DNA from: Ignavibacteriota bacterium
GTDB lineage: Bacteria > Bacteroidota > Ignavibacteria > Palsa-1295
Direction of reading: 5' to 3'
Assembly: GCA_963787835.1 (NCBI GenBank)
Contig: CAWBEI010000002.1
Span: forward strand, 1,664,001 to 1,728,000
Length of the DNA: 64,000 bases
Translations under genes and position numbers: made by a program
Notes under the pieces: model-generated
Databases searched by the model: none
The model's input: the letters and a program-made list of their open reading frames with translations, nothing else
Told to the model about the DNA's origin: nothing
Shown here: positions 1,991 through 4,728 of the stretch, in pieces
How positions within the stretch are numbered: the first letter of the stretch is position 1
Layout of the letters: every line of letters begins with the position of its first letter

Positions 1991-2097
1991 ATCCTAAGGA
2001 AAGCTACCCGATAGGAAATCAATTATAATGAAATCGAGAATCTTTGCGATTCAGAGATCATATTTCCCTGAAATTTTTTCCAAATACCCGGAACTCC

Positions 2098-2127
2098 TTG
2101 GCGCGTGATGTGATTTATTAGTATAGC
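2098..2127 (+). promoter_or_regulatory. Possible sigma70-type promoter for the ncRNA
   Basis: TTGGCG (2098-2103) and an AT-rich TATTAGTATAG block just before the G-run at 2130; spacing is imperfect. Confidence 0.35.
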
Positions 2128-2129
2128 TT

Positions 2130-2580
2130 GGGGGATTGCGGGTCAAAATTGCTAATGACGACCGCACCGATTCCTAAAGTCCGTTCGATCGGGTACGTAT
2201 AAAGCGATTATAGAGCGCGGCCAGCATAGTGGCGCTCAGAGTGGGGACCGGCACAGGCAACACTCCCAGACGAACACTCACCATCGGTAACCAGAGTCTT
2301 TTACTCTCAAAGTAACGATCAAGAACTCAAGGTAGCGATTAAGAGGATTGTGGATAAGCCCGTATGATCGATCATAACATGCTTGCCTGAAATCAGCAAG
2401 CTCTTGAAACTCGGATCGACAGTTAGCTCGGGAGGTCGAGATTCATTGCGGGATCTCCTCTACTCCTGCTTCGTAAAAATTTACTTCATCGTCACCGGAT
2501 GGTTAGCCTTAGAGAAACCCTCGAAGGTCATTCGGATTCGACACGAAAGAAACCGATAGGTGGCTTTCGGATTCCCTTTT
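2130..2580 (+). ncRNA. Large structured ncRNA, OLE-like
   Basis: No credible ORF. Nested long-range helices: 2130-2137/2570-2577, 2151-2155/2503-2507, 2156-2161/2489-2494, 2166-2171/2283-2288. Local stems: 2213-2218/2232-2237, 2239-2243/2261-2265, 2301-2305/2311-2315, 2381-2390/2393-2401. Ordered motifs CGATTCCT, GTCC, CGATC, ATAAA, TAGAGCGCGGCCA, GGCAACACTC..AGACGAAC, AATTTACT resemble OLE RNA as I recall it. Confidence 0.6.
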
Positions 2581-2644
2581 AAGAACCGTTCACATCCACC
2601 CCAATGGATTCAAACGATAGAACAATCGAACATAATATCACACC

Positions 2645-4684
2645 ATGATCACAATTATTGGCGGAGGCTTTTCCGGCCTTTCCGCAGCCTATTTTCTTCA
2701 CCGCGCCGGCAAAGAGGTTACCCTCCTCGAATGGTCCCGCAGTCTCGGCGGCCGTGCCTCCACTCGTAATGTCGGTTACCGGACGATGGATTCCGGCGCC
2801 CAGAGGATCGATCTTTCCCCGCTGGCATCCAATCAACTTGAAACGAATGCCCGAGCATTACTTCGCGCCGTGGCGATCGAGCGCGGCGTGCTTCAACACG
2901 CATTGCCATTTCCACCACCGGTGTTCCGGTTCGATGGTCGCTCCATCCAGACGGCACATGAGGTAGAAGTGCCGAACTGGTCCTATCTCGAAGGCGGCAT
3001 GAAAGTGCTTGCCGATGCTCTTGTCAAAGATGTTCCGGTGCGCACCCATACGCGCATCAGCGATATTGTTATTGAAAAGGATAAGTATCAGCTTCGCAAT
3101 CAGCGCGGCGAGATGACGCCCTCCGACGGAGTGGTGATCGCACTGCCTGCGCCCTATGCGCTGGCGATGCTGCTTCCACATGCCGAAAAGAATAAGAAGA
3201 TCAAGCGAATCACCGATCTTTTTAACGATGTGAATTACGAGCCGATGATCGGCGCAATGTTCGGCACGACGCGCATCGATTTTCGTGAGCCATTCACTTC
3301 TCTTTTCACGGATGATGTGACCGCTCCGATCTTCTGGCTTTCGCAGGAAAGCCGCCGGCGTCCGCTTGGCGTTCGCCAGGATGAAATGGCGTTCGTGCTC
3401 CAGCTTGGCGCGGAGATCAGCCGCGATTACGTACTGAAATCGGATAAGGAAACCTTCATTGCCGTCGAGCGGGTGTTCGAAGAAGTGCTCGATGTCGCGC
3501 TTCCGGATATTGTGTATGGAGAGATCCAGCGGTGGCCGGCTGCATTCCTTTCGTCATCGCCGTTTACGGTCGATACGATCAAAGAGGGCGAGTTCAAGGT
3601 GCCGCTTTATCTTGCCGGCGATTATATTGCCGGACAAAGTTCCATGGCATCCGCATTCTGGAGCGGCAAGCAGATCGCCGACCGTTTAGCGGGCGTCGAT
3701 ACCTTCCAGTTCATCGAGAATCCAGCGCGCGAGCAAGCGCGGCTCAATGAGGAGGACTGGAAAGCCGTCGTTCCGCCGATGCGGCTTCCGCGCAAATCCG
3801 TGCGGCCCATTCGCAAGCATGCCGATAAGAAGTACGATGCCGAAAAGGGCAAGCGGGTATTCGTCCCTCGCGAGAAAAGGGAGAAAAAGAAATTCGAAGG
3901 CCGACCGTACGGCTCACGTCCCCAGGGGCGTTCGCAAGGCCAGCGGAGGGGCGGCCCACCCCGGCGCGGTCCGGGAGGGCCACCACGTCAGGGCGGATGG
4001 CAGCAAGGCCCGCGCCAGCAATCGAGCAGGCCGCGTCAGGGTGGTCAGGGAGGCTACGCGCCACGCGGTCCGCGACAATATGGTGGAGGCGGACAGCGAG
4101 AAGGCGGTTATGCGCCACGCGGCCCACGACAATATGGAGACCAGGGCCCACGCCAGTATGGTGAACAGGGACAAGGTCGCAGTTATGGTCAGCGCTCCGG
4201 CGGAGGCGGTCAAGGTTATGCGCCACGCGCTCCACGTCCGGCAGGACAAGATCGTCAGTGGGGTGGTGGCGGAGGTCAGGGACGCTCTTATGGTCAAGGC
4301 CAAGGCCAGCCACGGCAATATGGGCAAGGTGGTGGCCAAGGCCGTTCCTACGGTCAGGGCGGAGGACAGGGCCGCTCGTATGGCCAGGGGCAAGGCGGCG
4401 GATATAATCAGGGTCGCCCACAACGTCCGCGCCCGCAGGGAGAACGATCGAATTACAACGGCGGCGGATACCGTCAGCCTCGCGATAACGGTGCGCCTTC
4501 GCAAGGCCCGCGCCAATATGGCAGTCGCGGCGGTGGACAGCAGAGCGTGTATTCCACCAACGTTCGCCCACAACCACGCGGAGATCGCGGCGGCTATGAT
4601 CAGCAGCCCCGCACCAGCGGCTTCGAACCACCCATGCCGCGCCGTCCGCGCCGCCCGGAGGATGATTCGATCGGGAACCGATAG
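2645..4684 (+). CDS. FAD-dependent oxidoreductase (renalase/HemY-like amine-oxidase fold) with a long G/R/Q/Y/P-rich low-complexity C-terminal tail
   Basis: N-terminal IIGGGFSGLSAA...LLE...LGGRA..DSGAQ Rossmann/GG motif; C-terminal FAD motif LYLAGDY...ASAFWSG; repetitive tail from about aa 400. Confidence 0.85.
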   Translation: MITIIGGGFSGLSAAYFLHRAGKEVTLLEWSRSLGGRASTRNVGYRTMDSGAQRIDLSPLASNQLETNARALLRAVAIERGVLQHALPFPPPVFRFDGRSIQTAHEVEVPNWSYLEGGMKVLADALVKDVPVRTHTRISDIVIEKDKYQLRNQRGEMTPSDGVVIALPAPYALAMLLPHAEKNKKIKRITDLFNDVNYEPMIGAMFGTTRIDFREPFTSLFTDDVTAPIFWLSQESRRRPLGVRQDEMAFVLQLGAEISRDYVLKSDKETFIAVERVFEEVLDVALPDIVYGEIQRWPAAFLSSSPFTVDTIKEGEFKVPLYLAGDYIAGQSSMASAFWSGKQIADRLAGVDTFQFIENPAREQARLNEEDWKAVVPPMRLPRKSVRPIRKHADKKYDAEKGKRVFVPREKREKKKFEGRPYGSRPQGRSQGQRRGGPPRRGPGGPPRQGGWQQGPRQQSSRPRQGGQGGYAPRGPRQYGGGGQREGGYAPRGPRQYGDQGPRQYGEQGQGRSYGQRSGGGGQGYAPRAPRPAGQDRQWGGGGGQGRSYGQGQGQPRQYGQGGGQGRSYGQGGGQGRSYGQGQGGGYNQGRPQRPRPQGERSNYNGGGYRQPRDNGAPSQGPRQYGSRGGGQQSVYSTNVRPQPRGDRGGYDQQPRTSGFEPPMPRRPRRPEDDSIGNR

Positions 4685-4700
4685 TAATTCGGAATTCGTG

Positions 4701-4728
4701 TGTACACCGGGTTAAAACCCGGTGTACA
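4701..4728. terminator. Perfect inverted repeat between convergent genes (terminator or REP-like)
   Basis: TGTACACCGGGTT-AA-AACCCGGTGTACA. Confidence 0.6.

Follow-up and report, generated by a model that had tools for sequence, protein, structure and literature searches.

A renalase-fold flavoprotein with an RNA-protein-like tail and a probable CUCAC-bearing leader in a single family of uncultured bacteria from soil and peat

Background

OLE RNAs are about 600 nucleotides (nt) long with about 25% highly conserved nucleotides and precede the gene for the membrane protein OapA (PMC12265935), the E. coli DeaD mRNA has an 838-nt leader and is subject to feedback through mRNA stability and Rho (PMC7430678), and the formation of RNA-dependent condensates by DEAD and Hfq is promoted by their disordered tails, metabolic enzymes also joining such condensates (10.1101/2023.01.18.524314). 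The locus compared with these systems here lies in a 64,000-nt stretch of the genome of an Ignavibacteriota bacterium (assembly GCA_963787835.1, contig CAWBEI010000002.1, positions 1,664,001 to 1,728,000 of the forward strand; hereafter the window), in which a noncoding stretch at 2130-2580 is followed by an open reading frame (ORF) for a 679-amino-acid (aa) flavoprotein at 2645-4684 (+). The original prediction had described the stretch as a large structured noncoding RNA (ncRNA) and had placed the enzyme, 64 nt past the RNA 3' end on the same strand, in the position that OapA holds in OLE loci. Strand and spacing were confirmed (start at 2645, stretch end at 2580) and the observation on the protein stands, which leaves a flavoprotein particular to this lineage, its tail resembling those of RNA proteins and its leader carrying a motif. 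A separate scaffold RNA accounts for the data less well than does a 5' leader belonging to the flavoprotein mRNA, and we lean towards a single transcription unit, probably self-regulating, that comprises the CUCAC-bearing leader and the flavoprotein with its putative RNA-binding tail.

In bacteria, most known examples of a long basic low-complexity tail belong to RNA enzymes, namely RNase E, DEAD-box helicases and Rho. Compared with bacterial renalase (Pseudomonas 4zcc/4zcd/5krq/3kkj) and human renalase 3qj4, the flavoprotein has the fold in common at about 26% identity and keeps the residues of the flavin adenine dinucleotide (FAD) site, but beyond the fold it carries 35 additional ordered residues, a basic linker and a low-complexity tail of 220-420 aa, its DHGAQYF and WRYA motifs are changed and variable, and it forms a discrete clade. 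DeaD-type DEAD-box helicases resemble it in joining a folded core to a G/R-rich basic tail and in having a long 5' leader; here, however, the core is a flavoprotein and not a helicase, the leader keeps CUCAC, and feedback would be by analogy. The end of the tail also showed a weak Atlas likeness to DEAD-box helicase C-tails (0.83), which is a lead only. RNase E of bacterial ribonucleoprotein bodies (BR-bodies) and Bacteroides Rho likewise join a folded enzyme to an extended low-complexity region rich in charge, with multivalent RNA contacts likely in each case, although the flavoprotein fold has no known role in RNA metabolism and its tail is strongly net positive. With OLE/OapA (RF01071) only the layout is alike, that is, several hundred noncoding nt that immediately precede a protein-coding gene of the same orientation, whereas here there is no OLE match, no conservation of sequence or fold and a different phylum, and the downstream product is a soluble renalase-fold enzyme in contrast to the four-helix membrane protein OapA. 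On our best reading the locus is not an OLE/OapA analogue. Among the papers listed in a search that was thin on subscription titles, none dealt with this flavoprotein or its leader, and the leader analysis is new.

Results and discussion

Conservation and fold of the flavoprotein

Thirty-five genomes of the order, the source genome included and all from one family, were used, and comparisons were made against the 34 relatives. The source genome is 98% complete and its 2923 genes were roughly called. The flavoprotein was present in 27 of the 34 relatives (22 of the 24 good-quality genomes when the source genome is counted) and absent, at E 1e-15, from 400 other genomes sampled across the phylum, and the clade was found only in one Kapabacteria-type family, whose members are uncultured and live in soil and peat. 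When 1.84 billion representatives were searched with a profile, a discrete clade was recovered in which full-length members scored 660-713 bits, the best tail-less relative reaching 128 bits. Twenty-six ortholog loci were analysed after a fragment cut in the core and a frameshifted copy had been left out, and one of the 26 was cut within the tail, leaving 25 complete proteins with ortholog cores that were 48-96% identical. The frameshifted copy (G026, C1:853971-855052, in a single-contig genome) is split across three frames, likely through an assembly indel error.

The complete renalase-like FAD domain at aa 1-350 read from the window was borne out by several lines of evidence. Pfam matched NAD_binding_8 at 4-55 and Amino_oxidase at 110-348, phmmer aligned aa 2-348 with the renalase structure PDB 4zcc (E=5.7e-19), and an AlphaFold2 (AF2) model of aa 1-385, with a predicted local distance difference test score (pLDDT) of 90.9, returned 4zcc as the first Foldseek match (template modelling score, TM, 0.72/0.83). 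The seven top Foldseek matches were Pseudomonas renalase chains with TM up to 0.72/0.85, and the protein agrees with the structural definition of the renalase family in having a FAD fold of about 330-350 aa. The family label "predicted NAD/FAD-dependent oxidoreductase" presumably corresponds to COG3380. Protoporphyrinogen oxidase HemY was rejected, as the NCBIfam model TIGR00562 scored 36 bits against a cut-off of 97.85 and only the N-terminal FAD motif matched; HemY proteins are about 450-470 aa long.

The FAD-binding residues GxGxxG, E29, GGR, D49, G51, D326 and G341 were invariant in 26/26 orthologs and the renalase-type R296-W297 was also kept, the position of G325 being N or D in 10 of the 26. 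Relative to 126 outgroup proteins, the DHGAQYF and WRYA motifs of tail-less relatives were changed and variable in the tail-bearing clade, and Y/F54 was lost. Residues H232, R280 and Y57 of Pseudomonas renalase, which we take to be substrate-site residues, align with Q253, F301 and about R54. An argument for a pseudo-enzyme from the loss of H232 and R280 was dropped because these positions vary in the tail-less relatives as well (Q in 74 and H in 44 of 126). Since the FAD-binding motifs are fully kept and that variation is not particular to the clade, catalysis is still possible; the FAD site probably still binds flavin, and the enzyme may oxidise 2-/6-dihydroNAD(P) or another substrate. Residues invariant in the clade only, by the same outgroup comparison, included H19, R20, K23, W30, Y45, R46, R80, R99, H135, R154 and R276.

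A basic tail with fixed charge and short motifs

The basic linker REKREKKK was present as predicted. The tail that follows it had been described as RGG/prion-like and about 280 aa long; the G/R/Q/Y/P repeats held, over about 260 aa, while the RGG label did not, because only three RGG triplets occur and "RGG tail" is thus overstated. "G/R/Q/P/Y low-complexity tail" is the better term. These five residues make up 81% of aa 418-679 (isoelectric point, pI, 11.5), with GGYAPRGPRQYG repeated twice (aa 469 and 487) and GQGRSYGQ four times, and no gene call of the genome has a longer run that is poor in hydrophobic residues than this tail. It is atypical of renalases, as had been claimed, the 126 near-full-length outgroup homologs being only 305-385 aa long.

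The tail also proved to be conserved, a point on which the original prediction depended. A G-rich tail was found in 25/25 complete orthologs, with 223-421 aa past aa 385, and its net charge was +37 to +42 in 14/14 loci of genera g1, g3 and g6 whatever its length and +26 to +35 in the remaining loci. The motif V[YF][SQ]T was matched in 23/26 orthologs, with a TYSTN variant in one further, and acidic-x-GN[RQ] stood near the C-terminal end of 21 of the complete proteins. Tail indels in a close strain added up to whole codons. A search with the tail end (aa 628-679) gave matches limited to family members, and a back-translated end-motif pattern had eight matches in 250 other genomes of the phylum, not above the reversed control and none closing a real protein. 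The tail likely binds RNA, and the flavoprotein is likely to be condensate-prone.

As a separate observation, an RRM paralog of the source genome (C2:1441599-1441964) and its orthologs are without the usual glycine tail and have the conserved end motif DT(T/S)GRSYGNRRGWW; GRSYG and GNR are common to this end motif and the flavoprotein tail.

The CUCAC motif and a structured element in the leader

The leader set consisted of 28 ortholog leaders of 267-645 nt as delimited, up to the ATG, four of which had no recognised anchor and were delimited at 380 nt or the contig end. CUCAC occurred in all 28, with 58 sense and 3 antisense copies, at positions that varied among leaders. In 18 mutually non-alignable leaders it was present in 18/18, with 40 sense copies against 3 antisense and a shuffled mean of 7.4, and in 500 shuffled leader sets the best 5-mer was never present in more than 16 of the 18. 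Upstream regions of RRM genes from the same genomes served as a control and held 8 CUCAC in 13,792 nt, the best 5-mer having a z of 14.6 in the leaders versus 6.5 in this control. A downstream-region control reached z 14.9 because that region holds the conserved bS22 gene. Upstream regions genome-wide showed CUCAC without strand bias (114 versus 100). Tail-less homologs had been expected to lack the upstream element, and in line with this none of six class-level homologs was comparably enriched (4 CUCAC in 2400 nt, 6/7 loci being parsed). Near-variants of CUCAC lie in the window at 2235, 2306, 2326, 2589 and 2637.

A structured element was identified in genera g4 and g9, where helix P1 (GC-CGGAGG / CCUCYG-A-GC with a bulged A) was 100% paired in 10 sequences, compared with only 36-43% when the whole structure was slid, and its pairing was kept through G-U and A-U changes. 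P1 is followed by a hairpin whose loop carries UCUCAY, the stems differing in sequence. A model built from these 10 sequences had one match per genome, before the flavoprotein gene only, the matches being the training set, and gave weak matches at two g2 loci. Outside the family the P1 pattern had six matches in 266 genomes, all in long open frames and consistent with chance.

The CUCAC signal in the leader likely controls the flavoprotein gene. A search of the source genome for a CUCAC regulon gave no standout group of leaders and, as there was also no enrichment before RRM genes, a reader specific to this gene is indicated. Two other explanations of the leader signals were rejected. A variant anti-Shine-Dalgarno sequence, ASD2, has been described (PMC7797042), but with the canonical 16S end of the source genome CUCAC as a mimic of it found no support; CsrA-type control through GGA hairpins was set aside because no CsrA was found in that genome.

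Promoter-like site and transcription

The promoter-like site before the leader took the form GGAACTCC-N15-RTT in 13/14 genus g1 loci examined, the fourteenth being cut by a contig end, and AAACT-N17-GTT in 10 loci from two other genera. We infer a transcription start near 2122-2127, about 5 nt before the 5' end of the proposed RNA. The pattern RAACY-N16-18-RTT also precedes 15/47 tRNA genes of the source genome (five of these in reverse orientation; mean of 2.7 in shuffles), 104/981 of its protein genes (random 3.4%) and the bS22 genes of relatives, and this ECF-like (extracytoplasmic function) pattern may be the housekeeping promoter of the lineage, unlike the TTTG/TAnnTTTG type of Bacteroidia. 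Twenty-two sigma-region-2 matches were found in the source genome. Promoter-like site and leader stay with the gene while the upstream neighbours change, and an RNA-library contig (2558-2871) bridges leader and ORF. Contig depths in the single RNA run were flat, so that leader and ORF could not be ranked, and 7/30 bins were without cover.

Tandem repeats of 7 nt, for instance TTCATAC and TTCTTAA, stand before many tRNA genes (e.g. C2:1229967, C4:107096) and often form inverted arrays.

The upstream stretch in relatives

The stretch at 2130-2580 is noncoding and folds somewhat better than shuffled sequences (z -2.59), with folding z in the window from -2.6 to -3.0 and 5' and 3' ends that can pair. 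As a large structured ncRNA it did not survive comparison. Rfam returned no match for the stretch, at the gathering score or by E-value, and none in 20 ortholog loci, a DNA search recovered it in only 2/34 relatives in pieces of 69 and 42 nt, and BLAST left it unmatched in a relative whose protein core is 96% identical. Upstream sequence and fold were unconserved even between genomes with 95-96% identical proteins. In the close strain, known from a peat RNA run, the leader showed 44 substitutions plus 8 gaps over 643 nt and the coding region 10 substitutions in 314, 11 in 241 and 10 in 220 nt; 16 of 28 listed leader substitutions fell at paired positions and 11 of these 16 broke the pair, so the predicted fold was not kept. 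The median folding z over the 28 leaders was -0.9, a terminator-like hairpin with a U run near the 3' end was present in only four of them, and neither a conserved terminator, a conserved second promoter nor a conserved upstream ORF was seen in the set. A conserved global fold was accordingly rejected.

OLE RNA was rejected as well, no covariance model match being found in the window; a genome-wide OLE search was silent, but likewise in all 14 control genomes, and the window scans alone count. No tmRNA or tRNA lies at the stretch, the tmRNA of the genome being elsewhere. The proposed OapA position of the enzyme fell with the unconserved leader, its roughly two-fold length range, the varying upstream neighbours and the soluble product. 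Co-occurrence of the RNA with the tail held in part, since a noncoding stretch and a sense motif precede tail-bearing genes; sequence and fold of the RNA, by contrast, are not conserved.

Proposed regulation and alternatives

In the self-regulating unit that we favour, transcription from the housekeeping-type promoter would start around 2122-2127 and continue past the leader to include the ORF. Post-transcriptionally, the leader would serve as a dial, the tail capturing RNA non-specifically and a sequence-reading surface recognising CUCAC; this surface would most likely be on the flavoprotein itself, in the clade-specific invariant basic and aromatic patch. Binding of the leader would lower the protein's own synthesis through early termination, decay or blocked initiation, as in DeaD, and the tail would likely keep the flavoprotein in RNA-rich assemblies, for example ribosome- or mRNA-containing granules. 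Because only short RNA motifs are kept, the leader would be a protein-binding regulatory untranslated region (UTR) and not a structural RNA, and self-feedback is the best guess because the element is single-copy at the gene, the tail is of RNA-binding type and the basic surface is clade-specific. Several observations weigh against this proposal. With a pI of 6.0 the core domain lacks a strongly basic character, and the leader of the source genome, with its single exact CUCAC, ranks 227 among 1186 upstream regions. CUCAY was not enriched in hairpin loops of genus g1 (4/46 versus 48/279 in controls) and only marginally so in far genera (8/25 versus 23/149, p 0.048). The structured element model finds nothing in genus g1, the window included, and its covariation is modest, 20-39 of 500 shuffles reaching it on four of five measures. 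RNA-library contigs also cross the promoter into the upstream gene and may for that reason be DNA. Lastly, a weak terminator-like hairpin ends near 2577 and two internal promoter-like matches occur, none of them conserved, so that a discrete leader RNA is possible in the source strain.

It is conceivable, though unlikely, that the leader is a cis-regulatory 5' UTR in which CUCAC is read by another factor (an RRM or KH protein, or Rho via C-rich sites) and that the tail, without any feedback, merely tethers an active enzyme for NAD(P)H-isomer repair to RNA granules or ribosomes. The source genome does encode three RRM proteins, while CsrA and proteins with a cold-shock domain were not found in it; the kept FAD-binding motifs and the variability of the H232/R280 positions in tail-less relatives would suit a working enzyme, and metabolic enzymes are reported to join bacterial RNA condensates (10.1101/2023.01.18.524314). 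An outside reader is, however, poorly matched by the lack of CUCAC enrichment before RRM genes and of a CUCAC-rich leader regulon, and by a structured element that is single-copy and at the flavoprotein gene. We give very little credence to a separate large structured ncRNA at 2130-2580, which would form an OLE-like ribonucleoprotein in which the protein encoded downstream is the dedicated partner. Such an RNA would start just past the promoter-like site and end near the hairpin and U run, its ends can pair with favourable folding in the window, and a noncoding stretch with conserved RNA-level motifs occurs in all 28 loci; yet it lacks an Rfam match, is traceable in 2/34 relatives as against 27/34 for the protein, loses 11 of 16 substituted pairs in the close strain, has a median folding z of -0.9 over the 28 leaders and is bounded by no conserved terminator or second promoter. 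OLE RNAs, by contrast, measure about 600 nt, of which about 25% are highly conserved, and are partnered by a membrane protein (PMC12265935).

We also doubt strongly that the leader is mostly neutral spacer, in which case CTCAC would be an orientation-dependent DNA site recognised by a transcription factor and the tail would bind proteins or polyanions, not RNA. In the close strain the divergence of the leader does equal or exceed that of the coding region, the CTCAC positions vary and the genome has its 22 sigma-region-2 matches, but the motif comes after the predicted transcription start and is nearly all sense (58:3), and in g4 and g9 it occupies the loops of hairpins whose stems differ, beside a P1 helix whose pairing is kept through G-U and A-U changes. 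Beyond the self-regulating unit, a bolder extension is improbable: the renalase fold would have become an RNA-binding protein that reads sequence, scaffolds condensates and carries the main basic disordered tail of the cell, VYSTN and DDxIGNR would recruit partners, UCUCAC in its own leader would be read to set its level, and the flavin would sense redox or repair isomerised NAD(H), possibly on NAD-capped RNA, in RNA granules.

Locus features and genomic neighbourhood

The features of the locus are collected in Table 1.

Table 1. Positions in the window of the features described for the leader and the flavoprotein gene
Feature	Position	Strand	Evidence and remarks
Promoter-like GGAACT-N17-ATT (family form RAACY-N16-18-RTT)	2090..2119	+	Ortholog loci; predicted start ~2122-2127
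Long noncoding 5' leader, fast-evolving	2123..2644	+	Covers proposed RNA 2130-2580; relatives compared
CUCAC motif, only exact copy in the window leader	2277..2281	+	Aligned with CUCAC of the two closest relatives
Hairpin (-14.5 kcal/mol) with short U run, weakly terminator-like	2534..2580	+	Not conserved; missed by terminator scan
Renalase-fold FAD domain, aa 1-350	2645..3694	+	Pfam, phmmer, AF2/Foldseek; FAD-binding motifs intact, DHGAQYF and WRYA altered
Ordered clade-specific extension, aa 351-385	3695..3799	+	D352, P360, R362, Q364, W372, P377 invariant or near-invariant
Basic K/R-rich linker, aa 386-417	3800..3895	+	REKREKKK is aa 409-416 at 3869-3892
G/R/Q/P/Y low-complexity tail, aa 418-679	3896..4681	+	Composition, conservation; predicted disorder
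Short motif VYSTNVR (family form V[YF][SQ]T)	4547..4567	+	Regular expression, orthologs
C-terminal motif EDDSIGNR plus stop	4658..4684	+	acidic-x-GN[RQ] in orthologs

Upstream neighbours of the flavoprotein gene varied and included TonB, a membrane protein, rpmD and others, with rpsE-rpmD upstream in two loci. The window encodes at 443-1990 a protein with four tandem TonB_C domains, a TonB-like gene is also upstream in one close relative, and in most close relatives a divergent membrane-protein gene directly precedes the leader. Downstream, a gene for the ribosomal protein bS22 (31 aa; PDB 7jil/9i5v matches with E about 1e-9) was the convergent neighbour in 16/25 loci. The bS22 gene of the source genome is not at the flavoprotein locus and lies at C5:161762-161854. 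Past the stop codon, at 4701-4728 of the window, is a perfect 13-bp inverted repeat; as eight copies with up to three mismatches occur in the genome, it is REP-like (repetitive extragenic palindromic) and not a gene-specific terminator.

Besides the RRM proteins, the source genome encodes two DEAD-box helicases without RGG tails. Its RNase E/G (C5:289415-291454, 679 aa) has an acidic/basic insert near S1 and a C-tail of about 75 aa and is without a long scaffold domain, and a PNPase recognised by eye (C5:181592-183865) ends in an RGG/DRRGGG repeat tail. A family-2 glycosyltransferase-like protein, also assigned by eye (C2:365457-367511), has a charged low-complexity N-terminal extension of about 320 aa and an R/P-rich C-tail.

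Conclusions

A long, well-folding intergenic stretch can mimic an ornate ncRNA in one genome and then fail the comparative test. The leader that replaces it offers a candidate RNA ligand, made up of a hairpin with UCUCAC in the loop and a bulged helix and without a match in Rfam. That a metabolite-repair fold keeps such a tail family-wide, its short motifs and net charge being fixed, suggests that RNA granules and the redox chemistry of flavins are connected in these bacteria.

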